Program-made: the position numbers and the translations under genes | Notes under the pieces: model-generated | The model's database searches: none | The model's input: only the letters and a program-made list of their open reading frames with translations | What the model was told of the DNA's origin: nothing | Shown here: one piece after another, positions 19,162 through 60,937 of the stretch | How the letters are laid out: each line of letters opens with the position of its first letter | How positions within the stretch are numbered: the first letter of the stretch is position 1 | Sequence record: DRR723986_13572 | DNA: 64,000 nt | Strand: one strand, 5' to 3'

Positions 19162-19399
19162 TAGAAAGCAAGATTGATTCTTTAAATATAAACATTATCC
19201 CAATTATGACTGTAAAATTATTATAGAATACTTGTACTCTTATGCTGCAGAAGTTCAGTTTCAATATATGTTTTTCATCGGTGAAATTTACAAGACTTAC
19301 ATTTTGAACGATTTAACATACGTTTATGGCAGTAATACTCGTACTTAGATGATATGCAGTTGATTTGTACAACCCAAACAATCTATAAATAACCTACAT

Positions 19400-19964
19400 A
19401 TGAAAACTACTCTTGTAAAAATAGTATTTACTTCAGTATTAATCTCTGTAGTTTTTATCGGAAAATTGAATGCCAACACTTGTGTTTAGCACAATAATGT
19501 ATATACATCAGTAAAGGAGGGTTCTACCAATACTAACACTAACGATCATAGACGTAAAATTAGATTAGGTTTTACTGCACCGAGTGCCATGCATCGTCAA
19601 TTACTATTAACTGAAGATGAAAATGCATCAAATGAAATAGATTGGGGTTATGATGGTGAGTATTACGAAACAGAATATGATGATATGTATTGGTTAATAG
19701 AAGGTGGTTTATTTACAATACAGGGAACAGACATTATAGACGAGTCTTCTAATTTTACTATAGGATTTCATACAAATGATAGCGGTTTAAATACGATTAG
19801 AATAGATGTATTAGAGAATATCGGTGATGGTTTATACTAATACAAATTTATGAGATGGCACCTATGGCGAGTATGAGCTTAATAACTTAAGTACCGGAAC
19901 TTATATCATTAAATTGTATACAGAAAACAACAAAGCCATTACAAAGAAAATTATTGTGAAGTAA
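19400..19964 (+). pseudogene. Disrupted T9SS-secreted protein (in-frame TAG plus probable internal deletion/frameshift)
   Basis: ATG 19400 MKTTLVK... signal peptide; TAG at 19487-19489; frame continues KIRLGF..HRQLLL..GYDG; stop at 19838-19840; a T9SS CTD tail LSTGTYIIKL...TKKIIVK* follows in another frame. Confidence 0.75.
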
Positions 19965-19993
19965 TGTGATACTTCGATTTTTTAGTTAGTTAG

Positions 19994-20071
19994 AAAAAGG
20001 TTTTAAGGTTTTACACTTTAAAGCCTTTTTAATAATAAAAAAGCCAATTCAAATTAATGAATTGGCTTTTT
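19994..20071. terminator. Two tandem intrinsic terminator hairpins between convergent genes
   Basis: AAAAAGGTTTTAAG..CTTTAAAGCCTTTTT and AAAAAGCCAATTCA..TGAATTGGCTTTTT. Confidence 0.75.
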
Positions 20072-20092
20072 CCATTTTCTAACTAAACTTAA

Positions 20093-21901
20093 TTAAAAGC
20101 AGTATTTATTTTCTGCTTTAACTTTTTCAGCGATCTCATTTCTAAGGTCTACTATATCTGGATAATTTTGATATTTCGTAAATCGTTTAAGACCCATAAG
20201 CATCATGCGTTGTTCATCACCCTCAGCAAACGAAATAATACTTTCTCGTCCCTTATCTTCTACAATGTTAAGTGCATTGTATAAATATAATTTAGACATA
20301 GCAATTTGTACTTTTTGGGCATCTTCACCAAAACGCTTCGCATTTTTCTCAGTTCTTAATATTGCAGACTCTGCCATATAGATCTCAATTAAGATATCAG
20401 CTGCAGCAATCAGTAATTGCTGATGTTTCTCCATTTCTGGTCCAAATTTCTGAACAGCAGCACCTGCAACCATCAAGAATACTTTTTTCATCTTCGCAAT
20501 CATTGCTTTCTCTTCAGAAAATAGCTCAGAATAATCTGGAGTATCAAATGATGGAATACCCATTAATTCTTCTTGTACTTTCATTGCAGGCCCTAATAGG
20601 TCTACGTGACCTTTCATAGCTTTTTTCACTAACATACCAACAGATAACATTCTGTTTATTTCGTTAGTTCCTTCGTAGATACGAGCAATACGTGCATCTC
20701 TCCAAGCAGCTTCCATTGGTGTTTCTTCAGAGAATCCCATACCACCAAAGATTTGAATTCCTTCATCTGCACAATTCTGTACGTCTTCAGAAACGGCTAC
20801 TTTTAGTATAGAACATTCTATTGCATACTCTTCAACACCTTTTAATTCTGCCTCTTGGTGAGAATTACCCGAAGCTTCTCTAATTGCAATACGATCTTCA
20901 ATGTTTTTAGCAGCACGGTAAGTTGCTGATTCCCCTGCATAGGCATCAGCAGCCATTTTAGCTAACTTCATTTTAATAGCGCCAAAATCCGCTATTGGTG
21001 TTTTAAATTGCTTACGTTCATTAGCATAATTTACTGCAGTAGTTAAAATACGTCTTTGAGAATCTAAACATGCAGCTGCCAATTTAATACGACCAACATT
21101 TAAAGCATTCATAGCAATTTTAAAACCTTCACCGCGACCAGCTAACATATTTTCTACCGGTACTAAAGTATCGTTAAAGAATACTTGACGTGTAGAACTC
21201 GCTCTAATACCTAACTTATGTTCTTCTTCTCCGAGTGTTACACCGTTTGGATTTTCAGGATCATATTCTACAATAAATCCAGTGATATTTTTATCGTCTT
21301 CGATACGTGCAAATACAATCATCAAACTACAGAAACCTGCATTTGAAATCCACATTTTTTGCCCATTAATTTTATAAGACTTACCATCTGCTGAAAGTTC
21401 AGCTGTAGTTTTTCCTGAGTTGGCGTCAGAACCTGCTCCAGGTTCAGTTAAACAGTAAGCTCCAAACCACTCTCCTGTGGCTAATTTTGGAACATATTTT
21501 TGTTTTTGTTCTTCCGTACCATAAAGTGTAATTGGCATAGTACCAATCCCTGTATGTGCGCCAAAAGCTGTGCTAAATGAGCCAGTACCTGACGATATAT
21601 AATCACAAACTAAACAAGTAGAGACAAATCCCATTCCTAAACCATCATAGGCTTCTGGAACTGCAACGCCTAAGAATCCTAGCTCACCTGCTTTACGCAT
21701 ACACTCTTCGGTTAAAGCGTAATCTTTTGCCTCAAATCTATCTTTATGTGCAATAATTTCACGGTCATTAAATTCCATAACCGCTTCTTTCATCATTTGC
21801 TGCTCTTCTGAAAAATCTTCAGGAGTAAATACGTCTTCACATTTTGTTTCTTTAACTAAGAATTGACCTCCACGTAGGATATCTTTTTCAGTTGTTTCCA
21901 T
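20093..21901 (-). CDS. Acyl-CoA dehydrogenase (long form)
   Basis: AYCLTEPGAGSD, NGQKMWISN, QIFGGMGF, RIYEGTNEI. Confidence 0.95.
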   Translation of the reverse strand: METTEKDILRGGQFLVKETKCEDVFTPEDFSEEQQMMKEAVMEFNDREIIAHKDRFEAKDYALTEECMRKAGELGFLGVAVPEAYDGLGMGFVSTCLVCDYISSGTGSFSTAFGAHTGIGTMPITLYGTEEQKQKYVPKLATGEWFGAYCLTEPGAGSDANSGKTTAELSADGKSYKINGQKMWISNAGFCSLMIVFARIEDDKNITGFIVEYDPENPNGVTLGEEEHKLGIRASSTRQVFFNDTLVPVENMLAGRGEGFKIAMNALNVGRIKLAAACLDSQRRILTTAVNYANERKQFKTPIADFGAIKMKLAKMAADAYAGESATYRAAKNIEDRIAIREASGNSHQEAELKGVEEYAIECSILKVAVSEDVQNCADEGIQIFGGMGFSEETPMEAAWRDARIARIYEGTNEINRMLSVGMLVKKAMKGHVDLLGPAMKVQEELMGIPSFDTPDYSELFSEEKAMIAKMKKVFLMVAGAAVQKFGPEMEKHQQLLIAAADILIEIYMAESAILRTEKNAKRFGEDAQKVQIAMSKLYLYNALNIVEDKGRESIISFAEGDEQRMMLMGLKRFTKYQNYPDIVDLRNEIAEKVKAENKYCF

Positions 21902-21925
21902 TTTATAGTATTGTATTAAGTTCTT

Positions 21926-23116
21926 TTAATTTAAAAATTCAAATATTCCGCAAGCACCTTGTCCTGTACCTACACACATTGTTACAGCGCCATATTTACC
22001 TGTCATTTCGCGTTTACGCATTTCATCAAATAACTGTACAGAAAGCTTAGCGCCTGTACATCCTAAAGGGTGACCGAGCGCAATTGCTCCACCATTAACA
22101 TTTATAATATCTGGATTAAGATCTAACTCCCTTATAACAGCTAAAGACTGCGATGCGAATGCTTCGTTTAATTCAATCAAACCTAAATCGTCTTGATTTA
22201 ATCCTGCTTGTTTTAAAGCTTTAGGAATAGCCTTAACAGGACCTATTCCCATAATTCTTGGTTCTACACCAGCCGCCGCATAACTCACCAGACGCGCAAT
22301 AGGTTCAATATTTAATTCCTTAACCATATCCTCACTCATAACCATTACAAAGGCAGCACCATCACTCATTTGAGATGAGTTACCAGCAGTAACACTTCCA
22401 CCAGCTGCGAATACAGCTCTTAATTTAGCTAATGCTCGTTTGCTTGTCCCTTTTCTTGGGCCTTCATCTTTTGCTACAGTATACGATCTAGTAGCTTTAT
22501 TCCCATTTTCATCAATATAGGTTTGATCTACAGTAATTGGCACAATTTGATCCTGAAAACGATTTTCTGCTTGAGCCTTAAGTGCTTTCATGTGAGAATT
22601 AAATGCAAATTCATCTTGATCTTCTCTAGATACATTAAATTGATTGGCAACTGCCTCTGCGGTATTTCCCATTCCCCAATAATATTCTTCATGACCTGCT
22701 TTTACGGTATCGTAATTTAATTCTGGTTTAAAACCTGTCATTGGAACGGAGCTCATACTTTCAGAACCACCTGCTATGATACAATCTGCCATTCCTGCTT
22801 GTATTTTGGCAGTTGCAATACCAATAGTTTCAATACCTGAAGAACAAAAACGATTAACTGTTACACCAGGCACATCTACACTGTTTAATCCTATTAAAGA
22901 AATAAATCTAGCCATATTAAGACCTTGAGATCCTTCTGGCATTGCATTACCTACAATAACATCATCAATTCTTGAGACATCTAAGTTTGGTAATTCCTTC
23001 ATCATGTGCTGAATGGTTTCAGCTCCTAATTCGTCAGCTCTTTTAAATCTGAATACACCTTTTGGAGCTTTTCCTACCGCTGTTCTGTATGCTTTTACTA
23101 TATATGCTTGTTTCAT
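21926..23116 (-). CDS. fadA: Acetyl-CoA C-acyltransferase (thiolase)
   Basis: NRFCSSG, NEAFA, GHPLGCTG, CVGTGQG motifs. Confidence 0.93.
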   Translation of the reverse strand: MKQAYIVKAYRTAVGKAPKGVFRFKRADELGAETIQHMMKELPNLDVSRIDDVIVGNAMPEGSQGLNMARFISLIGLNSVDVPGVTVNRFCSSGIETIGIATAKIQAGMADCIIAGGSESMSSVPMTGFKPELNYDTVKAGHEEYYWGMGNTAEAVANQFNVSREDQDEFAFNSHMKALKAQAENRFQDQIVPITVDQTYIDENGNKATRSYTVAKDEGPRKGTSKRALAKLRAVFAAGGSVTAGNSSQMSDGAAFVMVMSEDMVKELNIEPIARLVSYAAAGVEPRIMGIGPVKAIPKALKQAGLNQDDLGLIELNEAFASQSLAVIRELDLNPDIINVNGGAIALGHPLGCTGAKLSVQLFDEMRKREMTGKYGAVTMCVGTGQGACGIFEFLN

Positions 23117-23120
23117 TGTA

Positions 23121-25529
23121 TTAATTTCTTAAAGGTTTACCAGTTTTTAACATGTGTTGTATACGCTCTAACGTTTTGCGCTCTGTACATAGTGATAGGA
23201 ATGCTTCACGTTCTAAGTCTAGTAAATATTGTTCGCTAACAAGAGTTGGTTCAGATAAATCACCACCTGCCATTACATAAGCAAGTTTGTTAGCAATTTT
23301 CTGATCGTGTTCACTGATATAATGACTCGCTTCCATAGAGTCAGTTCCTACCAAGAACATACCTAAAGCTTGTTTACCAAGAACTTTAATATCCTTACGT
23401 TTTACTGGTTGAGTATAACCTGCGTCTGCTAATAATCTTGCATGAGCTTTAGCAGTTGCGATTTGCCTATCTTTATTGACAACAACAATATCTTTCCCTT
23501 TTTGCAACACGCCCAAATCATAAGCTTCATAAGCTGAGGTTGCTACTTTAGCCATACCAATAGTTAAGAAATATTCCTGTAAAACATTTAGCTCAACATC
23601 TCCTTTTCTAAATGTGTCTTGTGCTCTTAAAGCCATTTCTTTAGAACCACCACCACCAGGGATAACTCCAACTCCAAACTCTACAAGACCAATGTAAGTT
23701 TCTGCTGCAGCAACAACTTTATCAGCATGCATTGATAATTCACAACCTCCACCAAGAGCCATACCATGTGGTGCAGCTATAGTTGGGATAGAAGAATAAC
23801 GCATACGCATCATAGAATCCTGGAAGTATTTAATCGCCATATTAAGCTCGTCATATTCTTGCTCGGCTGCCATCATAAAGATCATACCTATGTTAGCACC
23901 TACAGAGAAGTTTGCAGCTTGATTACCAACAATTAAACCATCAAAATCTTTTTCAGCAATATCAATAGCTTTATTTAGACCTGCTAAAACATCACCTCCA
24001 ATGGTATTCATTTTAGACTGAAATTCTACATTAAGAATACCATCACCTAAATCTTCAACAACAACTCCAGAATTTTTAAAGACTTCATTAGACTTTCTAA
24101 TATTATCTAGAATGATGAAACTGTCTTGTCCAGGTATTTTAGCTTGAGATTTACTTGGTACATCATAAGCATAAGAAGCACCATCTTTTACTGAATAAAA
24201 TGCTTTACTACCTGAAGCTAACATATCAATTACCCATGTATTAGGTTCTAAACCTTCTGCTTTCATCATTTCAATACCAGCTTCTACACCAATTGCATCC
24301 CAAATCTGAAAAGGACCATGTCCCCAACCAAATCCGGCTTTCATCGCATCATCAATCTTATATAGCTCATCTGTAATTTCAGGAATGCGATTAGAAACAT
24401 AGGCAAATAAAGCCGCTAAATGTTTCCTGTAGAATTCACCAGCTTTATCTTTTCCTTTTACTAATACTTTAAAACGGTCTGCAACATTATCTATAGTTTT
24501 TGTTAATTCTAGCGTAGCAAATTTAGCACGCATTTTAGCTCTATAATCTAAGGTATCTAAGTCTAGGGATAGTATTTCTTTTTTACCTTCAGCAGAAACA
24601 CTCTTTTTATAAAATCCTTGACCAGTTTTACTGCCTAACCACTTGTTTTCCATCATGGTATTGATAAAATATGGAATGGTAAAAAGTTCTAATTGCTCAT
24701 CATTAGGACAATTATTTTTAATTCCATTAGCTACATGAACTAAAGTATCTAAACCAACAACATCTACAGTTCTGAACGTAGCTGATTTTGGTCTACCGAT
24801 AACAGGGCCAGATAATTTATCTACTTCTTCTATAGTGAGTCCTAATTCTTTTACCACATGGAAAACATTCATAATGCTAAAAATTCCGATACGATTGCCA
24901 ATAAAAGCAGGAGTATCCTTTGCAACTACCGATGTTTTTCCTAAAAATTGCTCTCCATATCCATTTAAGAATTCTAAAACAGATGCATCGGTTTTAGGTC
25001 CAGGTATGATTTCGAATAGTTTTAGGTAACGAGCAGGATTAAAGAAGTGTGTTCCACAGAAATGCTTCTGGAAATCTTCACTACGACCTTCACTCATAAA
25101 TTTAATAGGAATACCTGAGGTATTTGATGTAATAAGTGTACCAGGTGTTCTATACTTTTCTAGCTTTTCAAATACCTGTTGTTTTATATCTAAACGCTCT
25201 ACTACAACCTCCATAATCCAATCAACATCAGCCACTTTAGCAATATCATCTTCAAGATTACCAGTTGTAATTCGGTTTTTGAATGAGGAATGATAGAGTG
25301 GAGCAGGTTTAGATTTTATTGAAGCTGTTAAAGCATCATTTACTAAACGGTTTCTTACAATCTTATCGTCTAAAGATAAGCCTTTAGTTTTCTCTTTGTC
25401 ATTTAATTCTCTTGGTACTATGTCAAGCAATAAGACATCTACACCGATATTTGCAAAATGGCAAGCAATACCGCTTCCCATAATACCAGAACCAATAATA
25501 GCTATTTTCTTTATTCTACGTTTACTCAT
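23121..25529 (-). CDS. 3-hydroxyacyl-CoA dehydrogenase / enoyl-CoA hydratase fusion (FadN-like)
   Basis: GSGIMG, SNTSG, HFFNP; C-terminal crotonase FSVGAN, GGGCE, GLVEFGVG. Confidence 0.93.
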   Translation of the reverse strand: MSKRRIKKIAIIGSGIMGSGIACHFANIGVDVLLLDIVPRELNDKEKTKGLSLDDKIVRNRLVNDALTASIKSKPAPLYHSSFKNRITTGNLEDDIAKVADVDWIMEVVVERLDIKQQVFEKLEKYRTPGTLITSNTSGIPIKFMSEGRSEDFQKHFCGTHFFNPARYLKLFEIIPGPKTDASVLEFLNGYGEQFLGKTSVVAKDTPAFIGNRIGIFSIMNVFHVVKELGLTIEEVDKLSGPVIGRPKSATFRTVDVVGLDTLVHVANGIKNNCPNDEQLELFTIPYFINTMMENKWLGSKTGQGFYKKSVSAEGKKEILSLDLDTLDYRAKMRAKFATLELTKTIDNVADRFKVLVKGKDKAGEFYRKHLAALFAYVSNRIPEITDELYKIDDAMKAGFGWGHGPFQIWDAIGVEAGIEMMKAEGLEPNTWVIDMLASGSKAFYSVKDGASYAYDVPSKSQAKIPGQDSFIILDNIRKSNEVFKNSGVVVEDLGDGILNVEFQSKMNTIGGDVLAGLNKAIDIAEKDFDGLIVGNQAANFSVGANIGMIFMMAAEQEYDELNMAIKYFQDSMMRMRYSSIPTIAAPHGMALGGGCELSMHADKVVAAAETYIGLVEFGVGVIPGGGGSKEMALRAQDTFRKGDVELNVLQEYFLTIGMAKVATSAYEAYDLGVLQKGKDIVVVNKDRQIATAKAHARLLADAGYTQPVKRKDIKVLGKQALGMFLVGTDSMEASHYISEHDQKIANKLAYVMAGGDLSEPTLVSEQYLLDLEREAFLSLCTERKTLERIQHMLKTGKPLRN

Positions 25530-25984: not shown

Positions 25985-26018
25985 ACTTTTTAGTAAGTTT
26001 CCAAAGATAATAAAAAAA

Positions 26019-26063
26019 TACTATGCACGCATAGTAAATTTAAAAAATTATGCATGCATAGTA
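26019..26063. promoter_or_regulatory. Two tandem palindromic operators (probable MarR sites)
   Basis: TACTATGCACGCATAGTA (26019-26036) and AATTATGCATGCATAGTA (26046-26063) just upstream of the marR promoter -7 box (TATCTTTG on minus strand). Confidence 0.75.
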
Positions 26064-26103
26064 TATTGTGATAAAAATAAGTACTTAAGCTAAATCTTAT
26101 TTC

Positions 26104-27879
26104 TTATGGGCGGTATATTTTTTCGTAAAGTGTATCATACTTTTTACGGATTACACTACGTTTCATTTTCATGGTAGGTGTTAAATGACCTGCATCAATA
26201 GACCAAACTTCTGGAGTCAATTCAAATCGTTTAATTTGTTCCCACTTACCAAAATTTTTGTTGTATTTATCTACTTCTTTTTGAATTCGTTTTATCACTA
26301 CATCTGATGTAGCTATTTCCGTTTCAGAATGCCCAATAGTATGTTCTTTATGTTCAATCCAGTCTCTTACAAAATCAAAATTTGGCTGTATGATAGCTCC
26401 TGGCATTTTTTCACCTTCACCGACAACCATTACTTGCTCAATAAACAAAGACTGTTTTAAGTCATTTTCTAAAAGTGTTGGGATAATATATTTTCCACCA
26501 GAGGTTTTGAACATTTCCTTTTTTCGGCCTGTTATTTTTAAGAATCCATCATTGTCAATTTCTCCTTTATCACCAGTATGGAAATATTCACCAGTCATTA
26601 CACTAGCCGTCTTTTCAGGATCTTTATAATAACCCATCATTACATTTGGTCCTTTGATGAGTATCTCACCATCTTCTGCAATTTTAACTTCAACATTTTC
26701 TATAGGTTTACCTACTGTACCAACCTTGTAATTTTTATCATTGTACATACCAACAGATACGACAGGTGATGTTTCTGTAAGACCATAGCCTTCCATAACT
26801 TTCATGTTTGCAGCACCAAAAATACGAGCTAACCTAGGTTGTAATGCTGCACTGCCAGATACCATTGTACCAAGTTCTCCTCCCAGTGCTTCACGCCATT
26901 TACTAAAAATTAATTTATTAGCAATTTTTAATTGAAATTCATACCAACTCCCATTTGCACCATATGGTTCCCATCGTTCTCCGATGCGTACAGCCCAAAA
27001 GAATAGGGCTTTTTTGATGCCAGTAAGATCTTCTCCTTTTAGCATTATTTTATCGAAAACTTTTTCAAGCAATCGTGGTACAACACTCATTAAGTTTGGA
27101 TTAATCTCTTTAGCATTATCACCAATTTTATCTAAAGCTTCAGCAAAATAAATAGACGTGCCGGCATATTGGTAAACGTAAATAAGAACACGCTCAAAAA
27201 TATGACAAATGGGTAAGAAGCTTAATACTCTGGTTTCACCTGATGGTGGTAAAGGAACGCGTGGTGAACTATCTAATACATTACTAGTAATATTCCAATG
27301 TGATAACATTACACCTTTAGGTCTTCCAGTGGTACCAGAAGTATAGATTATTGTAGCTAAATCGTCTGGTTTTACAGCTTCTTTTCTAGCTTCAACTTCT
27401 GGTTGTGTTACTTCATCTTTACCTAATTCAAATAACTCAGAGTAGTGTTTACATCCATTAATGTGGTCAAAAGAATAAACCTCTTTTAAACTAGTATTGG
27501 CTTTTACTTTTTTAACTTTTTCTAAAACCTCCTCATCTGAAACAAAGCAGTATATTGATTCACTATGGTTTAAAACATATTCGTAATCTTCTGCACTAAT
27601 GGTAGGATAGATAGGTATATTTTGAGCACCAACTTGTAAAATACCAATATCCATAATATTCCATTCGGTTCTATTGGTAGAGGAAATTATAGCGATTTTA
27701 TCATTTTTTTGAATTCCTAATTTTAAAAGTGCTCTACTGATAGCATTTGCTTTGTCTAAATACGTTTGAGTAGACATAGCTTCCCATTTACCGTTGTATT
27801 TTGTAACTAATGCAGAATCATTAGGTTTATGTTTTAATTGATAATAAGGGAAATCAAAAAGGCGGGTTATCTCGGTCAT
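26104..27879 (-). CDS. fadD: Long-chain fatty acid-CoA ligase
   Basis: YTSGTTGRPKG, GYGLTE, FHTGD, ITGRKK motifs. Confidence 0.9.
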   Translation of the reverse strand: MTEITRLFDFPYYQLKHKPNDSALVTKYNGKWEAMSTQTYLDKANAISRALLKLGIQKNDKIAIISSTNRTEWNIMDIGILQVGAQNIPIYPTISAEDYEYVLNHSESIYCFVSDEEVLEKVKKVKANTSLKEVYSFDHINGCKHYSELFELGKDEVTQPEVEARKEAVKPDDLATIIYTSGTTGRPKGVMLSHWNITSNVLDSSPRVPLPPSGETRVLSFLPICHIFERVLIYVYQYAGTSIYFAEALDKIGDNAKEINPNLMSVVPRLLEKVFDKIMLKGEDLTGIKKALFFWAVRIGERWEPYGANGSWYEFQLKIANKLIFSKWREALGGELGTMVSGSAALQPRLARIFGAANMKVMEGYGLTETSPVVSVGMYNDKNYKVGTVGKPIENVEVKIAEDGEILIKGPNVMMGYYKDPEKTASVMTGEYFHTGDKGEIDNDGFLKITGRKKEMFKTSGGKYIIPTLLENDLKQSLFIEQVMVVGEGEKMPGAIIQPNFDFVRDWIEHKEHTIGHSETEIATSDVVIKRIQKEVDKYNKNFGKWEQIKRFELTPEVWSIDAGHLTPTMKMKRSVIRKKYDTLYEKIYRP

Positions 27880-27984: not shown

Positions 27985-28098
27985 GCAAAAAAAGAAAAGA
28001 GACTAAAAACTAGTCTCCTTTCAAAAATACTTTTAACCCTATTACTTGAAATTAATATAATAACCCTAACATTATATTTAATTAGTATAAAAGTATTA
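27985..28098 (-). ncRNA. Candidate sRNA (or structured araC 3' UTR) with two UAGGGUU motifs
   Basis: -7 box TAATTTTG (28108-28101), 10-bp outer stem, about 12-bp inner stem with GUUAGGGUU loop, terminator with a G:U pair on the minus strand and U7 tail. Confidence 0.5.
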
Positions 28099-28146
28099 CT
28101 CAAAATTAAGGACTTTGGTGTTTGTATTGATGTAAAAAATCGAAAG

Positions 28147-28953
28147 CTATTTGTTTAAATACTCACTAAGAAAAGGATGTTGTGTCTTAAAATACTCTTT
28201 TGGAGATTGTTTCATAAAATATTTAAAATCCTTTGTAAAGTGAGAATGATCATAATAGTCGTACATATAAATAAGATTGTTTAGACTGATTTCCTTACCT
28301 TCATACTTGCGCATTAACTTTAAAAAGCGGTATAAACGAATATACCTTCCTGGCGTTAATCCAACTATTTTTTTAAAATGTGTTTCGAGAGTTTTTTGAC
28401 TGAACTCAACTGAATCTAACAATTCGTAGGTATTTAATAGTCCTTCTTTTTCTTGTATTACACATATAGTTTTATCGATTTGTTGTATTACTGGATTATC
28501 TTGAAGAGATATATTTTGTATAGCTAGTTTTAGAATTTTTGATAGTTCAGGAATATTATTTTTATGTTCAGTAAATAAAGGATTCAATGCATTAAAAAGA
28601 GTTTCATCAAAGTTTTTCAGAGGAATATGCTTGTTCTTTATTTTCCCAATATCCGCTTTAGAAATTTTATAAAGTGCTGTAGGATGCAGGGACATACCGA
28701 ATGAAAAACCTTCTTTATTTACTAAAAATTGATAGGAATCATAGAATTGCCCAGTGACTATAGGTCCAGAGAGCGAGGTGTGATGATTATTATAAATAGC
28801 TTTTTGACTATCACTATAAATAAATGTAATTGAAGTGTTGCATATGGGCAAAACGGTAGACTGAAAAGGTACATCTTCTTCAGAGAATTTTAGAAGAAAA
28901 AGCTCTTCAACTAAATCTTTAACATCATCAACATTAAAATATTTGAGCGTCAT
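28147..28953 (-). CDS. AraC-family HTH regulator (DUF6597-like N-terminus)
   Basis: C-terminal KTLETHFKKIVGLTP...YYDHSHFTKDFK..SPKEY. Confidence 0.85.
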   Translation of the reverse strand: MTLKYFNVDDVKDLVEELFLLKFSEEDVPFQSTVLPICNTSITFIYSDSQKAIYNNHHTSLSGPIVTGQFYDSYQFLVNKEGFSFGMSLHPTALYKISKADIGKIKNKHIPLKNFDETLFNALNPLFTEHKNNIPELSKILKLAIQNISLQDNPVIQQIDKTICVIQEKEGLLNTYELLDSVEFSQKTLETHFKKIVGLTPGRYIRLYRFLKLMRKYEGKEISLNNLIYMYDYYDHSHFTKDFKYFMKQSPKEYFKTQHPFLSEYLNK

Positions 28954-32400: not shown

Positions 32401-33107
32401 TTTGTTGTGTAAAAGTCTGGTATATCTGCACGTTGAGGAGCAAACTGTTCTACCACTGGTCCCTTTATAAATGCAACGTTATCTTTGTAAGCTGAAACGA
32501 TATCATTAGGATTTTGTCTTGATGTTTCTTTTATCATATTGAACAACGATGAAGGCTGTTCTTGACCGTCAATTACAAATGTGCCATTGAAGATTTTATG
32601 TCTGCAGTGTTCTGAATTAACTTGTGAAAAACCAAACACTTCGGAGTCTGTTAAAGGTCTACCAATTTTATTTGATACACCTTCTAAATACTCTATTTCC
32701 TCATCACTTAATGCTAGCCCTTCTTGTTTGTTGTAAGCTGCAATATCATTAATATTTTGAATGTCCTCTGGCTGAATATTTATTGTGAATAAATCTTGAT
32801 TAAGATTCTTGAATTTTTCTGAAATCATAGGATCAAAATCCCTAAATGTATCAGAAATTGCTATAAATTCTTCAATTCGTATTATACCTTCAATTCCCAT
32901 ATTTTGGGTTATTTCAACGGCATTTGTACTCCAAGGAGTTATCATTGCTGCCCTTGGACCAACAAAAAAAGCATCAATTGATGCTTGTTCTATTTTTGGC
33001 TGATTGCCAAATAACCAGACTAGTTTTAAAATAGTTTCGGTTGATAATTCTTTTGTTGCTTGAACAGCAAATACTTTACTGTTTTGGTTTCCAAAGAAAT
33101 GAATCAT
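29445..33107 (-). CDS. purL: Phosphoribosylformylglycinamidine synthase (large single-chain PurL)
   Basis: NSEHCRHKIF, KAETHNFP, HDHGAGG, GICNGCQ, MPHIER. Confidence 0.97.
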   Translation of the reverse strand: MIHFFGNQNSKVFAVQATKELSTETILKLVWLFGNQPKIEQASIDAFFVGPRAAMITPWSTNAVEITQNMGIEGIIRIEEFIAISDTFRDFDPMISEKFKNLNQDLFTINIQPEDIQNINDIAAYNKQEGLALSDEEIEYLEGVSNKIGRPLTDSEVFGFSQVNSEHCRHKIFNGTFVIDGQEQPSSLFNMIKETSRQNPNDIVSAYKDNVAFIKGPVVEQFAPQRADIPDFYTTKDFESVISLKAETHNFPTTVEPFNGAATGSGGEIRDRLAGGKGSIPLAGTAVYMTSYSRLNEERPWEKAFPERKWLYQTPMDILIKASNGASDFGNKFGQPLICGSVLTFEHSESNNKIGYDKVIMQAGGIGYGKADQAIKDVPKTGDKIVILGGDNYRIGMGGAAVSSADTGEFDTGIELNAVQRSNPEMQKRAANAVRGMVESEENFIVSIHDHGAGGHLNCLSELVEDTGGLIDLDKLPVGDPTLSAKEIIGNESQERMGLVISENHLEVLHKIADRERSPIYDVGDVTGKHRFTFESKTKGDKPMDLALEDMFGSSPKTIMKDITVKKDFSDVTYNKDNFYDYLDQVLQLEAVACKDWLTNKVDRCVGGKVAKQQCAGPLQLPLNNVGVMALDFKGKEGIATSIGHSPISGLIDPVAGSRNSISEALTNIIWAPLKDGLKSVSLSANWMWPCNNEGEDARLYKAVKAISEFAIDLGINVPTGKDSLSMKQKYPDGDVIAPGTVIISAAANCSDITNVVEPVLKKNKGSIYYINLSQDNFELGGSSFAQIVNKVGNSAPTIKSAEYIKTVFNTIQNLIKSYKIVAGHDVASGGLITTLLEMCFADNNLGAEIDLTSLNEMDSFKLLFAENVGIVFQSTDSSIESELEKANINFHKIGEVTESDVLGIINKNEVFTMTVSRLRDMWYKTSHFLDRRQTANNLANTRFANYKNQPLDYTFPTYFTGELPEINKTQTRPKAAILREKGSNSEREMANAMYLAGFDVKDVHMTDLISGRETLEDIQFLGAVGGFSNSDVLGSAKGWAGAIKYNEQANRVIQNFFDREDTLSVGICNGCQLFMELEEINPDHEIHGKMVHNDSNKHESSFTSVKIQKNDSIMLSSLAGNTLGVWISHGEGKFDLPYSEDKYHIVAKYGYEDYPHNPNGSDFNTAMMCDKTGRHLVTMPHIERSIFQWNWAHYPDDRNDEVSPWLEAFINARKWIEKH

Positions 33108-33217
33108 TTATATGTTGAATTTGATGTGAAAAATAAAAACACAAAGTTAATCGATTTTACGATAATCTTATTAATTTTTGAGCTACATATGGTTAAGTAT
33201 TCAACAGGTTTTGAACA

Positions 33218-33250
33218 AAAAATAGCAGCTTATTAAAGCTGCTATTTTTT
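33218..33250 (-). terminator. Intrinsic terminator
   Basis: AAAAAATAGCAGCT-TATTAA-AGCTGCTATTTTTT. Confidence 0.8.
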
Positions 33251-34328
33251 ATTCAATAATAAGTTTCTTAGTGATTGTTCTATCGTCTTGAATAAATTTA
33301 AAGAGATACAATCCAGATGTTAATGAACTCACATCTATAGACATTGACTCATTGATCTTTCGAACAAACACTCGTTTCCCTAAAATATCATATATTTCTA
33401 TTCTCGTTACTGCATTATTAGAAATAGAAATATTAACATGGTCTTTAGCAGGGTTAGGATAGATACTCAACGTTGTATCTAATTCTTGTTCCTCTACTGA
33501 TAGTGTTCCCCAAGGGTCTTCAGGATCTAAGTTTCCACCCCAAATAACTTTAGCTAAATAAGGGTTGTCAATAAATGGATTACGGTTACCATAAGTAGAC
33601 TCTAGTAAGTTATTACGATTGTTTTCTAGTTCAGAAACAGGATCGATAGCGTTCCATTCTAATAAAACTTGTAACATTTCTGTACTACCCTCTTTAGGAC
33701 CAGTAGCATTAAGATCTGGCAAACACCTGTCTCCATATCTAACATACATGTACATCATTATACGCGCTACGTCACCAATCCATTCGTCACCTGGATACCA
33801 GTTACCACTACCAACATCACCAGAGTTACCATTACCAGCTGCAAATAACTTACTTCCTCTATTGCCATTGCGCTGTACGTCACTAGCTCTTAAATTGTGA
33901 GGGTCTGCAACAATACCTAGAGAAGAGTTATTTGCCGAACCCATTGTTGGGTCTGCATTTGATCTTGCAAAAACATGCTCTCTATTATAATCACAATTAC
34001 TACCGCCAAAATCATCCTTATCTCTAATTCTTCTATCATTAATTCCACTAACACAACCTAAATTATCTACATATCCATAGACTAATAAGACATTAGAGTT
34101 TGATACATCGGTAGGGTCTAAATCCATAATTTTAATATCATCTCTCACATCTCCATAGGTGTATGTAGAATTATTTGTGTTATTACTTATTTTAAGTTGT
34201 ATGGCATCATACATAGCCTGTCCTGTAAGCGTAAAATCTACATTATTTTGTCCATTAGAATAATAGGCTTGCTGGGATAAACCCACAAAACTATAAATTA
34301 AAAATGCTATTATGTAAAAGTGTTTCAT
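33249..34328 (-). CDS. Extracellular endonuclease I (EndA/NucM-type) with T9SS C-terminal domain
   Basis: NREHVF, DPHNL, GDVAR..YM, GNRNPFID; CTD IYPNPA...YDILGK..TKKLIIE. Confidence 0.9.
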   Translation of the reverse strand: MKHFYIIAFLIYSFVGLSQQAYYSNGQNNVDFTLTGQAMYDAIQLKISNNTNNSTYTYGDVRDDIKIMDLDPTDVSNSNVLLVYGYVDNLGCVSGINDRRIRDKDDFGGSNCDYNREHVFARSNADPTMGSANNSSLGIVADPHNLRASDVQRNGNRGSKLFAAGNGNSGDVGSGNWYPGDEWIGDVARIMMYMYVRYGDRCLPDLNATGPKEGSTEMLQVLLEWNAIDPVSELENNRNNLLESTYGNRNPFIDNPYLAKVIWGGNLDPEDPWGTLSVEEQELDTTLSIYPNPAKDHVNISISNNAVTRIEIYDILGKRVFVRKINESMSIDVSSLTSGLYLFKFIQDDRTITKKLIIE

Positions 34329-34352
34329 AATCAATATTGTTTTTAACTCGAG

Positions 34353-35564
34353 TTATTTTTTTTCTAATAATGCCATATAAAATCCATCAAATCCAGATTT
34401 ATGAGCTAATATTTTTTTGTCTTTAATTAGTTTAAATCCTTGTCCTGCTTCCGAAGTTAAGAAATTTTCTATTTGCTTTTGGTTTTCAGAAGGTAGAACT
34501 GAACAAGTTGCATATACCATCTTACCACCAGATTTAACCATTTTTGAGTACTGTTGTAATACTTCTGCTTGAGTTTTTTTAATATTTTCTACAAACTCTG
34601 GTTGTAATTTCCACTTAGAATCGGGATTACGTCTTAATACACCTAAACCAGAGCAAGGTGCATCTATTAATAAACGATCAGCTTTACCGTGTAATTTTTT
34701 AATAGGTTTTGTAGAGTCGATAACTTTCATCTCCATATTATGGACGCCATTTCTGCGTGCTCTAATTTTGAGTTTTTTCAATTTACTCTCGTAAATATCC
34801 ATTGCTATTATCTGACCCTTGTTTTCCATAAGCGATGCCAAATGCAAGGTTTTACCACCTGCACCTGCACATACATCTACAACTTTCATGCCTGGTTTAA
34901 CATCCAAGAATTCTGCAACTAGCTGAGATGATGCATCTTGTACCTCAAACCAACCATTTTTAAAGGCTTCAGTTTTGAATACATTAGCGCGTTCAATAAG
35001 CTTTAAAGCAGATTGGTGATTTGGTAAAAATTCAGTTTCAATTTCTTCCGACTGTAATTTTAGTTGTAGATCTTTTTTATTGGTCTTTAAGGTATTTACT
35101 CTAAGAATTACATCAGCTTGTTCATTTTGCTTTGCTATTTCTTTTGTCCATTCAGTTTCTCCTAATTCTTTAACACCTAGATCGTCCATCCAATCTGGAA
35201 TAGATTCACGGTATTTTCTAATTTTTAAAAGTTCATCAAAACGACCTTTTATTTTTCGAGTTGGAGTATCTGTAAAGTATTTCCAATCTGGTAATTTAAT
35301 GCCTTTTAAAGTAGCCCAAACAGCAAATAATCTCCAGAGATTATCTCTGTCGTAGGGAGCTTTTACATTGGCTATTTCTGCATATAGTCTCTGATAACGT
35401 ACAATTTCATATACAGTTTCTGCTATGAATCCTCGATCACGACTTCCCCAACGTTTATCGCGTTTAAGAAGTTGCTGTATTACTTTATCGGCATATTCAC
35501 CCTCATTGAAGATTTTATGTAAACCATCAATAACTGCAAAACATAAGTTTCTGTGTAATCGCAT
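34353..35564 (-). CDS. RsmB/NOP family SAM-dependent RNA m5C methyltransferase
   Basis: QDASSQ, DVCAGAGGKT, DAPCSG, YATCS. Confidence 0.92.
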   Translation of the reverse strand: MRLHRNLCFAVIDGLHKIFNEGEYADKVIQQLLKRDKRWGSRDRGFIAETVYEIVRYQRLYAEIANVKAPYDRDNLWRLFAVWATLKGIKLPDWKYFTDTPTRKIKGRFDELLKIRKYRESIPDWMDDLGVKELGETEWTKEIAKQNEQADVILRVNTLKTNKKDLQLKLQSEEIETEFLPNHQSALKLIERANVFKTEAFKNGWFEVQDASSQLVAEFLDVKPGMKVVDVCAGAGGKTLHLASLMENKGQIIAMDIYESKLKKLKIRARRNGVHNMEMKVIDSTKPIKKLHGKADRLLIDAPCSGLGVLRRNPDSKWKLQPEFVENIKKTQAEVLQQYSKMVKSGGKMVYATCSVLPSENQKQIENFLTSEAGQGFKLIKDKKILAHKSGFDGFYMALLEKK

Positions 35565-35666
35565 TTAAAAAGATATAAGCGTGCAAATGTACAGTTAATT
35601 GTTATTTGATAAAAGTATTAATGGTTTATTCCGTATCCTTTTCTATTTTTAGAAAAAAATTATACT

Positions 35667-36749
35667 ATGAGATTTGTAGTTCTATTAGCCTTTTTTGTTT
35701 TATTAAGTTCTTGCAAAGAGGAATATATTAGATCATCTAATGTGTCTAAAGTTGAAGTAGAAAATTTAGTTAATGATTCAACCTTGAGTGTAAGGGCACT
35801 AGATTTTAATGATGAATACATTTTTTATGGAAGTGAAGACCATATAGGTAAGCATGCGTTGAGCGCTCAATTTAAAATAAATTTAGATGATTTTTCAACT
35901 AATAATGGAAAAACACATTTTAAAAATGTTTTGACTTATGATGATCAGCCACTTCATTTTAGAGCAATTGAGGAGGTAGAAGGAAAATTTTTAGCGATTT
36001 CAATAGGTAATCCTGCGCGACTATATAAATTAAATCGAAAATCTAGTGAACCTAGATTAGTATATGAAGAAGTTAATGATAAGGTGTTTTATGACGCGAT
36101 GAATTTTTGGAATACTAAAGAAGGTATTGCCATCGGTGATCCTACGGATGATTGCATGAGTATAATTATCACCAGAGATGGAGGTGAATCTTGGAAGAAA
36201 ATTGATTGTGATAAATTACCAAAAGTTAGAGAGGGTGAAGCTGCTTTTGCCGCTAGCGATACTAATATAGCCGTTGTCGGTGACCATACATGGATAGCTT
36301 CGGGAGGCAAGGCAAGTCGTATTTTATACTCTCCAGACAAAGGGAATACATGGAATGTTTTTGATACTCCAATAATTCAAGGTAAGGAGACTACAGGCAT
36401 GTATTCAGTAGACTTCTATGATGAAAAAAATGGTTTTGCGATTGGAGGAGATTATACTAAACCAAGCGATACACTTGATAATAAAATTAGGACTAATGAT
36501 GGTGGTATAACTTGGCAAGTTGTTGCTAACGGTAAAGCAACAGGCTATAGAAGCTGTGTACAATATATACCCAATAGAGATGGTAATGAATTAGTAGCCG
36601 TTGGTTTTAAGGGTATAGACTACAGTAATGATTCTGGCACTACTTGGACACATTTAAGTGACGAAGGTTTTTATACTATACGCTTCTTAAATGATTCTAT
36701 TGCTTATGCAGCAGGTAGAGGACGAATAAGTAAATTAATGTTTAGATAA
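35667..36749 (+). CDS. BNR/Ycf48-like beta-propeller lipoprotein
   Basis: Lipobox LSSC; TRDGGESW, SPDKGNTW, TNDGGITW Asp-boxes. Confidence 0.8.
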   Translation: MRFVVLLAFFVLLSSCKEEYIRSSNVSKVEVENLVNDSTLSVRALDFNDEYIFYGSEDHIGKHALSAQFKINLDDFSTNNGKTHFKNVLTYDDQPLHFRAIEEVEGKFLAISIGNPARLYKLNRKSSEPRLVYEEVNDKVFYDAMNFWNTKEGIAIGDPTDDCMSIIITRDGGESWKKIDCDKLPKVREGEAAFAASDTNIAVVGDHTWIASGGKASRILYSPDKGNTWNVFDTPIIQGKETTGMYSVDFYDEKNGFAIGGDYTKPSDTLDNKIRTNDGGITWQVVANGKATGYRSCVQYIPNRDGNELVAVGFKGIDYSNDSGTTWTHLSDEGFYTIRFLNDSIAYAAGRGRISKLMFR

Positions 36750-36781
36750 AAAAAAAGCAGCTAAACAGCTGCCTTTTTATT

Positions 36782-37237
36782 CTAATTTCTTCTATTTCCG
36801 CGTTTTTCTCTAAACTCTCTTAATCGCTCTAATAGCATTTTATTGAATTGATCTTCAGCGGCTTTTAATTTTATAATTTTTGTTGAGGATATCACTTTTT
36901 TTAAATCGGTAACAAGCTCTAATTTAGCATCGTGCATATCTTTTTCAGCTTTTAAAAGTTTTTCTAATAACTCATCAGCTTCTCTATCTGAAACATCACC
37001 CTTGCGCATTTTCATTTTTATAGCTCTCAGGTCGTCATCCTTGATTTTTTCGACTTTAGCTTCAAAGGCATTATAAATTGGCCAAAACTTTTGTGCTTCT
37101 TCAGCTGTTAAACTTAATTTATCTGTTATAAAAGCTATTTTTTGAGCTTTTATCTTTTCTTGCATTTCCTTTCTTCCTCCTTGAGCAAAAATTGAAACAC
37201 TAAAAAGGAATAGTGCTATCGGGATTATTTTTTTCAT
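36782..37237 (-). CDS. Periplasmic helical protein of the ECF sigma operon
   Basis: Signal peptide; KIAFITDKLSLTAEEAQKFWPIYN motif; third gene after sigma and anti-sigma. Confidence 0.75.
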   Translation of the reverse strand: MKKIIPIALFLFSVSIFAQGGRKEMQEKIKAQKIAFITDKLSLTAEEAQKFWPIYNAFEAKVEKIKDDDLRAIKMKMRKGDVSDREADELLEKLLKAEKDMHDAKLELVTDLKKVISSTKIIKLKAAEDQFNKMLLERLREFREKRGNRRN

Positions 37238-37251
37238 TTCAAGTGTTATTT

Positions 37252-37752
37252 TTATTCTAAAATTGTTTCTATATCTGCATTCTCTAAAAGATAATCTTCT
37301 AGATTATCTTCATTGTAATTAGTTTCAATTATTGTAAAGTCATCTTCAAGTATATCAGCATCTGATAGTAGTTGAGCTAAATCATAAGTGTCTAAACCAC
37401 TATTTTCAAAATATGCTTCTACCATCTCACCAGTTAATTCATCTGGTTTTTCAATATTTATAAACACCGCAAATAGTAGTATTAATGATGCTGCAATACC
37501 TGCTACATAATAAAAGGATTTACGCGCAAATAAATGTACAATTGGTTTATCATCATTATTTATTTTAACTAAAACCTCTTGTTCAATGGTGTTAAAATAA
37601 TCTTTTGGCACAGAAAATCCTGGTGAATCAATTTCCTTAATTACATCAGATTCATTGATACGACTTAGGATTTTATCCTCAAGAGTATCAAAGTAGTTGC
37701 CTGGCGTTTTAAAACCTGTTGACTTAATGTTATGTAATTTATCTTCTTTCAT
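37252..37752 (-). CDS. Probable membrane-anchored anti-sigma factor
   Basis: Duplicated GFxxPxxYF motif, single TM (YYVAGIAASLILLF), downstream of the ECF sigma. Confidence 0.7.
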   Translation of the reverse strand: MKEDKLHNIKSTGFKTPGNYFDTLEDKILSRINESDVIKEIDSPGFSVPKDYFNTIEQEVLVKINNDDKPIVHLFARKSFYYVAGIAASLILLFAVFINIEKPDELTGEMVEAYFENSGLDTYDLAQLLSDADILEDDFTIIETNYNEDNLEDYLLENADIETILE

Positions 37753-37762
37753 TTGTTATTAT

Positions 37763-37787
37763 GACTTCAAATTATACAAATAGTTTA
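37763..37787 (-). promoter_or_regulatory. Putative ECF sigma promoter for the anti-sigma gene
   Basis: Minus strand TAAAC-N17-GTC-ATAATA. Confidence 0.55.
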
Positions 37788-38327
37788 ATCTGAAGTTAAA
37801 AAGGATTCTATTTTTTTAACTGCTAAATGATATGAAGCTTTTAGTGCTCCTTCAGTTGTGTCCAATATTTCGGACATATCTTTATATTTAATATCATCAA
37901 AATATTTCATATTAAATACAAGTTGCTGTTTTTGAGGCAAGGATGCAATGGCCTTCTGCAATTTAAGCTGTATATCATCACCCTCAAAATATACATCTGC
38001 CGTTAAGCTGTTAATAGCATTGTTTTGATGTTCTTCATTCGTTATTTGTAATCGTTTAGCATTTCTATTGATATGCGTTATAGATTCATTTGTAGCGATA
38101 CGATAGAGCCAAGAATAGAGTTTGCTTTCGCCTTTAAACTTGTCAATACTGCGATATACTTTTATGAAGGTGTTTTGCAATACATCGTCTGCATCATCAT
38201 GATTTAATACTATTTTTCGAATATGCCAATACAGACGTTCCTTATAGAGTTGCAATAACTCTCTAAACGCGGCTTCTTTAGAATTAGGGTTTTGTAGGCG
38301 TAATATGAAATCTGATTCGTTGATCAA
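37785..38327 (-). CDS. ECF RNA polymerase sigma-70 factor
   Basis: DADDVLQNTF..SWLYRIATN region 2; LPQKQQLVF..GALKASYH region 4. Confidence 0.93.
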   Translation of the reverse strand: MINESDFILRLQNPNSKEAAFRELLQLYKERLYWHIRKIVLNHDDADDVLQNTFIKVYRSIDKFKGESKLYSWLYRIATNESITHINRNAKRLQITNEEHQNNAINSLTADVYFEGDDIQLKLQKAIASLPQKQQLVFNMKYFDDIKYKDMSEILDTTEGALKASYHLAVKKIESFLTSD

Positions 38328-38347
38328 GTCAATAGGTTTGCTATTAA

Positions 38348-38372
38348 GACTCTACAAATTACTAAAAGTTTA
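38348..38372 (-). promoter_or_regulatory. Putative autoregulatory ECF sigma promoter
   Basis: Minus strand TAAAC-N17-GTC-TTAATA, same geometry as 37763-37787. Confidence 0.6.
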
Positions 38373-38518
38373 ATTGTATTGTTTAATTAAATTAATTGCA
38401 ATTAATCGTTTACTGATAATTAAATAGTTACAAGATAAATACTCGATAAAAAGCAAAAAAACACGATAAAAAGCACTTTTTTCTTGTTTTGTACTTTATT
38501 TTGTTATATGTTTGACCC

Positions 38519-38599
38519 AGCTTAACCTATAACCGTTACCAGTGTCCCCAAATCTGGTAACAAACAGAGAAGGATGCATGTAAAAGTGCATCCTTTTTG
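38519..38599 (+). ncRNA. Candidate orphan sRNA with CCCC-loop hairpin
   Basis: -7 box TATGTTTG 38507-38514; hairpin GTTACCAG-TGTCCCCAAAT-CTGGTAAC; terminator AAGGATGCA..TGCATCCTT-TTT on the + strand, opposite to both flanking genes. Confidence 0.6.
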
Positions 38600-60936: not shown

Positions 60937-60937
60937 A

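Follow-up and report, generated by a model that had tools for sequence, protein, structure and literature searches.

A conserved C-rich small RNA of Flavobacteriaceae as a candidate decoy of Rfp13-type RNAs, and an AraC-linked small RNA gene in the same window

The 64,000-nucleotide stretch from sequence record DRR723986_13572, here called the window, comes from a Flavobacteriaceae bacterium and is AT-rich, with a G+C content of 33%; the best match to its FadD protein, at 88% identity, is found in a Winogradskyella strain. Three elements of this window concern us here: a minus-strand RNA unit between an AraC-family regulator gene and fadD (unit 1), a plus-strand RNA unit between an extracytoplasmic function (ECF) sigma factor gene and an ABC transporter gene (unit 2), and the C-rich leader of a gene at 19400 for a cargo protein of the type IX secretion system (T9SS). 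The original prediction, which was made from the sequence alone, had joined the three in a single circuit, in which the G-rich loops of unit 1 control translation from the leader and the C-rich loop of unit 2 acts as a sponge of unit 1. We find that both units are conserved small-RNA (sRNA) genes, and that a circuit of G-rich and C-rich RNAs probably exists with a G-rich partner other than unit 1, namely an sRNA of the type known as Rfp13 in Flavobacterium psychrophilum. Genome-wide statements in what follows come from relatives of the window's organism, with 401 Flavobacteriaceae genomes used for DNA and promoter pattern searches and 151 for the covariance model and the Rfp13-type pattern, and cross-genome counts are uncorrected for relatedness. 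Pairing ranks were obtained by scoring each seed against all 24-nt windows on both strands of the window (n = 42,652).

The C-rich RNA unit 2 and its fit to Rfp13-type RNAs

Unit 2 and the two genes that flank it comprise the following features.

About 38521-38603, plus strand: unit 2, a C-type small RNA of ~80 nt (fold, covariation)
38521-38530, plus strand: 5' single strand of unit 2, CUUAACCUAU
38535-38561, plus strand: hairpin of unit 2, with the 11-nt loop UGUCCCCAAAU at 38543-38553
38570-38598, plus strand: terminator of unit 2 and its T run
38444..38514, plus strand: promoter region of unit 2, its elements at least 75-90% conserved in 31 homologues
38444-38455 and 38464-38475, plus strand: direct repeats CGATAAAAAGCA
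38479-38486, plus strand: -33 element TTTTCTTG
38507-38514, plus strand: -7 element TATGTTTG
37785..38327, minus strand: ECF sigma factor gene, divergent from unit 2 (Pfam)
38628..40454, minus strand: ABC transporter gene, convergent with unit 2 (Pfam)

Unit 2 is a real, conserved and single-copy sRNA gene that belongs to no Rfam family. Its C-rich hairpin loop is as originally described and is followed by a terminator, and the fold, with a minimum free energy (MFE) of -28.8 kcal/mol (z = -5.52), was matched in stability by none of 200 shuffles. A DNA search of the 401 family genomes recovered the region together with its upstream sequence in about 40, and the covariance model placed unit 2 in 47 of 151 genomes, in a single copy save in one genome. 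Aligned across 31 homologues, the region shows two direct repeats CGATAAAAWGCA, the -33 element and a -7 element TAnnTTTR at the proper spacing, followed by a 5' single strand CUUAACCUAC, a co-varying stem, an invariant loop UCCCCAAAU and the terminator. The hairpin is 98% paired in these homologues and six of its eight pairs show compensatory two-sided changes; none of 500 shuffles reached any of five measures, and slid controls were only 35-61% paired. The neighbourhood is conserved as well, with the ECF sigma gene beside 29 of 30 loci and the C-terminus of the ABC transporter beside 28 of 30, and in the window the transporter gene and unit 2 probably share a common terminator hairpin. The most conserved unpaired stretches of the RNA, CUUAACCUA(C/U) and UCCCCAAAUCU, are invariant unpaired columns. 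A search of the whole window against Rfam 15 at gathering thresholds found only a cobalamin riboswitch at 63309-63527, and the intergenic regions of both units, searched with E values up to 10, gave chance matches alone (8-21 bits). The earlier view of the two orphan units as discrete sRNA genes outside the named families is thus borne out for both, each of them being conserved.

The two invariant stretches of unit 2 find their complements in a described RNA. Rfp13 of F. psychrophilum, an RNA of 73 nt, is annotated 'induced under iron depletion' in supplementary file 9 of its report (Guerin et al., 2021, ISME Commun; PMC9723704). Its hairpin loop contains AAGUAGGUUAAG, and the single strand ahead of its terminator contains AGAUUUGGGGC. 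Each of these segments is exactly complementary to one of the conserved unpaired stretches of unit 2; expressed the other way, UAACCUA, which is common to unit 2 and the leader at 19400, and the CCCCAAAU loop each find an exact complement in Rfp13-type sRNA. We define an Rfp13-type RNA as one in which a terminator comes after the core CCAUAAC..GUAGGUUAAG..AUGGUAGAUUUGGGGC. Of 151 genomes, 122 contain this exact pattern, mostly with 2 to 5 copies in tandem; a backwards control gave 10 matches in all. Loci of the Rfp13 type have no match in Rfam. Of ten relatives searched, nine have the gene twice in tandem and the tenth has it once, at the edge of a contig; the 40-nt core does not differ among any of the 19 copies. 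The pattern accompanies unit 2 in 47 of 47 genomes, compared with 75 of the 104 genomes that lack unit 2 (cross-tabulated by hand; Fisher one-sided p = 4.8e-6, uncorrected for relatedness). The core itself occurs in neither unit, and in the window GTAGGTTAAG (with at most one mismatch) and GATTTGGGG are found only opposite unit 2 or scattered by chance.

The complementarity stands out from the background of the window. The loop of Rfp13 (seed A) pairs with the 5' end of unit 2 at -14.8 kcal/mol, rank 14 of 42,652, and its single strand (seed B) with the loop of unit 2 at -19.2 kcal/mol, rank 7. Both seed energies were reached by none of 200 dinucleotide shuffles in 27 of the 31 homologues and by one of 200 in three more, the last (L126) having been mis-cut. 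Three homologues in which the 5' motif has changed to AAACCUACUUAUG (L120, L122 and L128) are still complementary, in a register shifted along the Rfp13 loop. In these three and in four others (L121, L123, L116 and L117) the loop of the terminator hairpin holds a further CCCAAAU or CCCCAAAU, and by its sequence this would give the Rfp13 single strand a second decoy to pair with. Both motifs occur in the same order in the two RNAs, and unit 2 is therefore not the opposite strand of an Rfp13 gene.

By complementarity beyond chance, conservation and co-occurrence, unit 2 looks like a sponge or anti-sRNA, and the original suggestion that the C-loop RNA is a base-pairing decoy survives in this respect, with a different RNA as its quarry. 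The same complementarity would fit if the roles were reversed or mutual, that is, if unit 2 regulated G-rich sites in mRNAs and the Rfp13-type RNA were its antagonist, or if the two RNAs titrated each other. The copy numbers lend this some appeal, as 2 to 5 tandem copies of the Rfp13-type gene against a single copy of unit 2 would suit an abundant titrator. However, the invariance of the Rfp13-type core and its wider distribution (122 against 47 of 151 genomes) form the pattern expected of a hub with many targets, and it is unit 2 that varies and adapts to the Rfp13-type RNA. We consequently hold a reversal of roles to be unlikely, and continue with unit 2 as the candidate decoy.

Several observations in the surroundings of unit 2 are recorded here in their own right. 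The second CGATAAAAAGCA repeat, which begins 20 nt from the first, lies within a palindrome AAAATGCATTTT in most relatives. A box GATAAAAnTGCATTT, similar to the repeats of unit 2, is situated ~47 nt 5' of the first Rfp13-type copy in four of five relatives (L132-L136), and the fifth has a near variant of it; given similar boxes upstream of both genes, unit 2 and the Rfp13-type RNA may be under one DNA-binding protein. Exact copies of the box GATAAAAnGCATTT were found four times in two genomes, next to uninformative neighbours, and PMC9331221 contains no Fur-box information. Two open reading frames (ORFs) of 166 and 151 aa lie 3' of the ECF sigma gene (36782-37752, minus strand) and have no Pfam family; they are possibly anti-sigma partners of the ECF sigma factor. 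A guide RNA of the dCas12f-sigmaE type, in which the guide sits at the 3' end of the scaffold (PMC13472631), was considered for unit 2 and rejected, for neither of these two ORFs after the sigma gene has a Cas12f-like domain. The cobalamin riboswitch mentioned above scores 109.7 bits on the plus strand just 5' of an ORF that starts at 63592, and genes for FecCD, ABC and periplasmic-binding transporter components (60145-63109) adjoin it.

The leader and the remnant cargo gene at 19400

The leader and gene at the other end of the proposed circuit are made up as follows.

19369..19380, plus strand: first leader site ACAACCCAAACA, matching the complement of unit 1 at 10 of 12 positions
19389..19402, plus strand: AUAACCUACAUAUG over the start codon, forming 12 bp with one mismatch with the Rfp13-type loop
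19400..19965, plus strand: remnant of a small T9SS cargo gene (translation, Pfam)
19400 onwards, plus strand: signal peptide first, then an N-domain until 19840, then a frame shift (translation)
19487-19489, plus strand: TAG at codon 30 of the 19400 gene
19857-19961, plus strand: fragment of the sorting-domain tail, in another frame (Por_Secre_tail)

Both leader strings exist where they had been reported, at 19369-19380 and 19389-19399, the latter extending to 19402 with the ATG, and the 10 of 12 complementarity to unit 1 is present in the first. The gene behind them was rightly assigned to a T9SS cargo family, but it is not intact: a TAG interrupts it at codon 30, the frame shifts after the N-domain, and the tail fragment covers only the last 28 positions of the Por_Secre_tail profile at 23.7 bits (E = 6e-5), which is under the 27-bit cut-off. 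In all it has ~190 codons, compared with the 271-282 aa of intact homologues in which the full T9SS sorting domain is present. The hairpin loop in which the CCC of the leader was thought to lie appears only in a weak MFE structure, and the region 19340-19430 has no significant structure (-6.5 kcal/mol, z = +0.83, with 163 of 200 shuffles as stable).

As a target the first leader site is weak for both candidate RNAs (Rfp13 seed B, -11.8 kcal/mol, rank 1811; unit 1 loop 1, rank 856). The site over the start codon pairs with Rfp13 seed A at -13.9 kcal/mol, rank 30 of 42,652, and the cofold gain of the Rfp13-type RNA at this start, -16.2 kcal/mol, is the highest of 46 start regions in the window and was reached by 6 of 300 shuffles; the other 45 regions average -6.6 kcal/mol (sd 3.1), the best of them -14.9 kcal/mol. 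That the C-rich site at the cargo start codon is a plausible sRNA target, as had been proposed, is therefore upheld with the Rfp13-type RNA as the pairing partner. Two intact homologues from Psychroserpens-like genomes (L183 and L184) reach -25.0 and -24.1 kcal/mol with the Rfp13-type RNA, in a duplex that spans the start codon (about -10 to +25) and involves sRNA nucleotides 2-38. The third-best pairing of the 46 (-13.8 kcal/mol) falls on a 288-aa T9SS cargo gene at 56990-57853 (plus strand), which is akin to the 19400 family in its sorting domain only. Two of the three sorting-domain genes or remnants among the 46 thus rank first and third, a result of very small numbers and a post hoc one. 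The CopraRNA list for Rfp13 names putative adhesins, SprC/SprD, GldL and a metalloprotease, as predictions only (PMC9723704). On these pairing energies, 19389-19402 is a probable target site of an Rfp13-type RNA, or the relic of one, in a decayed gene.

Unit 1, its AraC-linked family and its loops

Unit 1 and the genes on either side of it are listed below.

27987..28095, minus strand: unit 1, a small RNA of ~109 nt (fold, 17-member family)
28064-28070, minus strand: hairpin loop GUUAGGG
28034-28041, minus strand: second UAGGGUUA of unit 1
27987-28021, minus strand: terminator of unit 1
28101..28142, minus strand: promoter of unit 1 as a whole
28131-28142, minus strand: promoter box CGATTTTTTACA, its spacing kept in the box-bearing members
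28101-28108, minus strand: -7 box TAATTTTG, 34 nt downstream of the promoter box
28147..28953, minus strand: gene for an AraC-family regulator (DUF6597 + HTH_18; Pfam)
20093-27879, minus strand: fadD-marR-fadB-fadA-fadE operon (Pfam)
26104..27879, minus strand: fadD, first gene of the operon (Pfam)
29445-33107: purL (gene map)

Unit 1 is a real, conserved and AraC-linked sRNA gene with a promoter, a terminator, a conserved structure and no coding frame, its longest ORF having 6 aa. The minus-strand sequence folds as had been described, into a closing helix, a hairpin with the 7-nt loop GUUAGGG and an internal loop that displays AAUAGGGUUAA, followed by the terminator; the MFE is -29.4 kcal/mol (z = -3.66), and none of 200 shuffles was as stable. 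The string TAGGGTTA occurs twice in 64 kb on both strands, both times inside unit 1. Immediately upstream, the stop codon of the AraC-family gene lies 4 nt ahead of the promoter box.

The family of unit 1 was assembled by reading the spacers between AraC and fadD genes and then by searching for the promoter pattern; BLASTN of the intergenic region against 80 fadD loci had matched only the stretch next to fadD. It comprises 17 distinct members, which have in common the box CGATTTTTTACA, a -7 element TAnnTTTR (the consensus TAnnTTTG being taken from a published passage), the closing helix, the G-loop hairpin and the terminator. The distance from the box to the -7 element is exactly 34 nt in all box-bearing members. 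An alignment of nine homologues with MAFFT and RNAalifold recovered only the terminator, and the hairpins were then inspected singly: GGG lies in the hairpin loop of 15 of the 17 members, in the form A/U-AGGG-A/U-U, on at least four unrelated stem sequences. In 16 of the 17 members the promoter box comes right after the end of an AraC orthologue (one of the 16 is partial). The promoter pattern gave 18 matches in 401 genomes against two for a backwards control, and ten of the 18 are of the sRNA type; none of five other box-bearing sites that were tested has an AraC gene. The size of the family and its linkage to AraC together identify unit 1 as a conserved RNA gene.

Variation around this promoter and hairpin was noted along the way. 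Most relatives have UAGUUAGUUA after the G-loop hairpin (L002, L007, L009, L015, L016, L021, L030, L085 and L090-L096), at the place where unit 1 of the window has its second UAGGGUUA. The 5' end of F. psychrophilum Rfp11 has the same AGUUAGUUAA, Rfp22 has UUUAGGGUUUU, and seeds of the GUUAAG type recur in Rfp11, Rfp13, Rfp15 and Rfp18. The unit 1 box occurs at the same spacing at further sites (L087, L088, L098/L100, L082 and L099), none of them adjacent to an AraC gene. Among these sites are a C-rich leader (AGCCCAAACCAAACAACC) accompanied by a small hairpin as well as a small ORF, an element duplicated in tandem in one genome, and a DUF3857 gene whose leader in one genome is complementary to the G loop of that same genome; the combination of DUF3857 gene, box and complementary leader (L099) is confined to two related genomes and is without a nearby AraC gene. 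In the leader of the AraC gene itself, TTTACCTACA (window 28965-28978, minus strand) lies 17 nt 5' of the ATG in 7 of 15 loci, and ACCTACATAT has only two copies in the window, one in this leader and one in that of the 19400 gene (19392-19401, plus strand). The AraC leader was tried as an Rfp13 target and rejected at -2.9 to -15.9 kcal/mol (-7.4 in the window), values not above background; TTTACCTACA may accordingly be a promoter or operator element.

Downstream, fadD is found after the sRNA in at least 14 of the 17 members, on the same strand and directly 3' of a terminated RNA, so that unit 1 might instead be a cis-acting leader or attenuator that controls whether transcription arriving from the AraC side continues into the fad operon. 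The structure of the region speaks against this. In the window fadD starts 107 nt 3' of the terminator, and in relatives without the sRNA only the 40 nt adjoining fadD are conserved, which is to say that fadD has its own conserved promoter stretch beyond the terminator and keeps it where the element is missing. Two members (L090 and L101) retain the AraC gene, yet no fadD was seen in the 330 nt scanned beyond their sRNA, and the linkage to AraC is in general tighter than that to fadD. Attenuation is thus a decidedly improbable role for unit 1, and we treat it as an sRNA gene in its own right. The stretch next to fadD in the window, TTAATTTTCWTATTTTCGTAAWA (27880-27990, minus strand), is kept in several relatives (L004, L006, L010, L011, L018 and L028), and in several Winogradskyella genomes purL directly abuts fadD, which makes the AraC-sRNA pair look like a module that was inserted or lost. 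A 117-aa ORF between purL and the AraC gene (29073-29426, plus strand) has a weak, sub-cut-off match to MFS_1 (21.8 bits) and is possibly a gene remnant.

What the exposed motifs of the three elements bind bears on two further explanations. The motifs UAGGGUUA, UAACCUA and CCCCAAAU could instead be recognised by an RNA-binding protein, such as a small RRM protein of the kind found in Bacteroidota; they do lie in unpaired regions, and in Bacteroides the protein RbpB binds sRNAs where these are single-stranded (PMC11697453). Two exact complements of 10-11 nt, with a register that is kept even when it is shifted as in L120 and its like, are unexpected on such an account, and although a chaperone may assist the pairing we rate protein recognition as the explanation of these motifs a slender prospect.

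The remaining explanation is the circuit as first drawn, with unit 1 at its centre. Against the 19400 leader, loop 1 of unit 1 scores -10.3 kcal/mol (rank 856 of 42,652), and the ranks of loop 2 are 4179 and 7373; with the 5' end of unit 2, loop 1 takes rank 1152 and loop 2, at -10.6 kcal/mol, rank 339. Cofolding with unit 1 gains -2.0 kcal/mol for the leader and -1.3 kcal/mol for unit 2. Unit 1 is consequently not the partner of the C-rich leader or of unit 2, since its complementarity to them is at background level, and with this both the pairing of the G-loop RNA with the leader and its capture by unit 2 fall away. Two other candidate targets were rejected as background: fadD leaders (cognate -14.0 against non-cognate -13.0 kcal/mol, sd 3.65) and AraC leaders (cognate -19.8 against non-cognate -20.2 kcal/mol). 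Scans of whole sRNAs with duplexfold were too noisy for use. Short partial complementarity, such as the 10 of 12 match and rank 339, thus meets hundreds of equal or better sites in 64 kb, a broken 19400 gene, loop flanks of unit 1 that vary among genera while unit 2 is constant, and a mismatch of distribution (unit 2 in 47 of 151 genomes, ten sRNA-type unit 1 loci in 401), and it leaves a unit 1 circuit with hardly any probability.

Proposed arrangement and comparison with known systems

The arrangement that we favour, and consider somewhat better than an even prospect, has unit 2 as a decoy of the Rfp13-type sRNA, the site at 19400 as an Rfp13-type target or its relic, and unit 1 as independent of both. 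With its own promoter, unit 2 would give rise to a plus-strand RNA of ~80 nt, whose 5' strand CUUAACCUAY would pair with the Rfp13 loop AAGUAGGUUAAG and whose loop UCCCCAAAUCU would pair with the single strand AGAUUUGGGGC; the predicted contacts are CUUAACCUA/UAGGUUAAG and CCCCAAAU/AUUUGGGG. Unit 2 would in this manner mask both target-binding segments of Rfp13 and set the amount of free Rfp13 that reaches its mRNA targets, among which the Rfp13-type RNA is predicted to pair at the start codons of mRNAs for small T9SS cargo proteins. Unit 1 would be an sRNA apart, its promoter probably controlled by the AraC-family protein and its AGGG loop most likely base-pairing with targets of its own. From the gene-like features and the conserved complementarity described above we infer that the RNAs are transcribed, that unit 2 and Rfp13 pair in the cell, and which of the two controls the other.

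A number of results weigh against this arrangement. No Rfp13-type gene was found in the 64-kb window, and its presence in this organism is deduced from relatives. The motifs follow the same 5'-to-3' order in unit 2 and Rfp13, so that the two helices cannot form one coaxial duplex, and the invariance of the Rfp13-type core makes compensatory change in both partners unobservable. Three unit 2 homologues (L121, L124 and L130) have CCGAC, which creates a mismatch; seed B is weak in four (L116, L119, L123 and L129), where 49 to 101 of 200 shuffles reach its energy; and the shuffle control for cofolding with unit 2 is uninformative, 71 of 200 reaching the observed value. The motifs of unit 2 occur in none of the 85 F. 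psychrophilum RNAs listed in PMC9723704, and the pair is therefore not universal. At the target end, other members of the cargo family range from -4.3 to -15.9 kcal/mol, with only -11.3 for L185; L161, the single syntenic orthologue examined, lacks the leader motif; and exact copies of the word AACCTACNTATG show no genome-wide enrichment (7 non-self against 12 control matches in five genomes). No target of unit 1 emerged among the 19400 leader, unit 2, the fadD leaders and the AraC leaders. Finally, four low-depth metatranscriptome runs (X14-X17) yielded only sparse Logan contigs over 19300-38700, at a depth of 0-1.4 around both units with no listed piece covering either, and resolved neither of them.

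A bolder version of the same arrangement would make unit 2 the first sponge of the Bacteroidota, a dedicated decoy with a promoter of its own that blocks both segments of Rfp13 simultaneously and thereby gates the control that Rfp13 would exert, at the start codons, on small surface proteins secreted by the T9SS, in a phylum where Shine-Dalgarno pairing is not used, with unit 1 as an AraC-driven member of the same network of G-rich seeds. This is an attractive possibility which we advance tentatively, and which we would sooner expect to fail in some part than to hold as a whole.

Flavobacteriaceae are major degraders of marine polymers and include pathogens of fish, and their post-transcriptional control is nearly unexplored. 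The present analysis adds two new sRNA families, both conserved and each with a defined promoter. For Rfp13, which is abundant and noted as iron-responsive, it offers a testable partner with two precise pairing sites, and a candidate class of targets in the small T9SS cargo proteins, with near-continuous duplexes at their start codons.

Several known systems invite comparison. In Pseudomonas, the iron-starvation sRNAs PrrF1 and PrrF2 are duplicated in tandem, and the tandem arrangement of Rfp13-type genes resembles them; the sequences are unrelated, and the likeness concerns the partner of unit 2 only. Among enterobacteria, the sponges 3'ETS-leuZ (of RyhB and RybB) and SroC (of GcvB) arise by processing of other transcripts and require Hfq. 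They share with the proposed decoy a threshold imposed on a hub sRNA by pairing with its seed, and differ from unit 2, which has a promoter and a terminator of its own. RosA of Bacillus subtilis is said to be a sponge both of RoxS and of the iron-sparing sRNA FsrA. As a separately transcribed RNA complementary to the target-binding regions of an iron-linked sRNA, it would be the closest functional analogue of unit 2, though it belongs to another phylum and is unrelated in sequence; here, moreover, the hub is G-rich and the decoy C-rich, and the function of unit 2 is predicted.

Within the Bacteroidota, the nearest relation is to Rfp13 (and Rfp15) of F. psychrophilum, Rfp13 being the proposed partner and conserved across Flavobacteriaceae (Guerin et al., 2021; PMC9723704). 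Units 1 and 2 are not members of that family. The mRNA targets given for Rfp13 in the available text of PMC9723704 are predictions only, the literature matches listed held nothing further on it, and within the literature searched, so far as its available text goes, Rfp18 alone has been tested genetically in Flavobacteriaceae. GibS and FopS of Bacteroides thetaiotaomicron (PMC11697453) offer a precedent among the Bacteroidota, as sRNAs whose seeds are single-stranded and pair at start codons in organisms making little use of Shine-Dalgarno signals. The Rfam score for GibS in our regions is 15.9 bits against a gathering threshold of 115, a chance match to the terminator only, and the available text of PMC11697453 describes no sponge alongside these two RNAs. 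Nor was a sponge RNA of the Bacteroidota or Flavobacteriaceae found described in the literature searched. If unit 2 does act as a decoy of the Rfp13-type RNA, sponge-type cross-talk between sRNAs, known in Proteobacteria and Firmicutes, would extend to the Bacteroidota.

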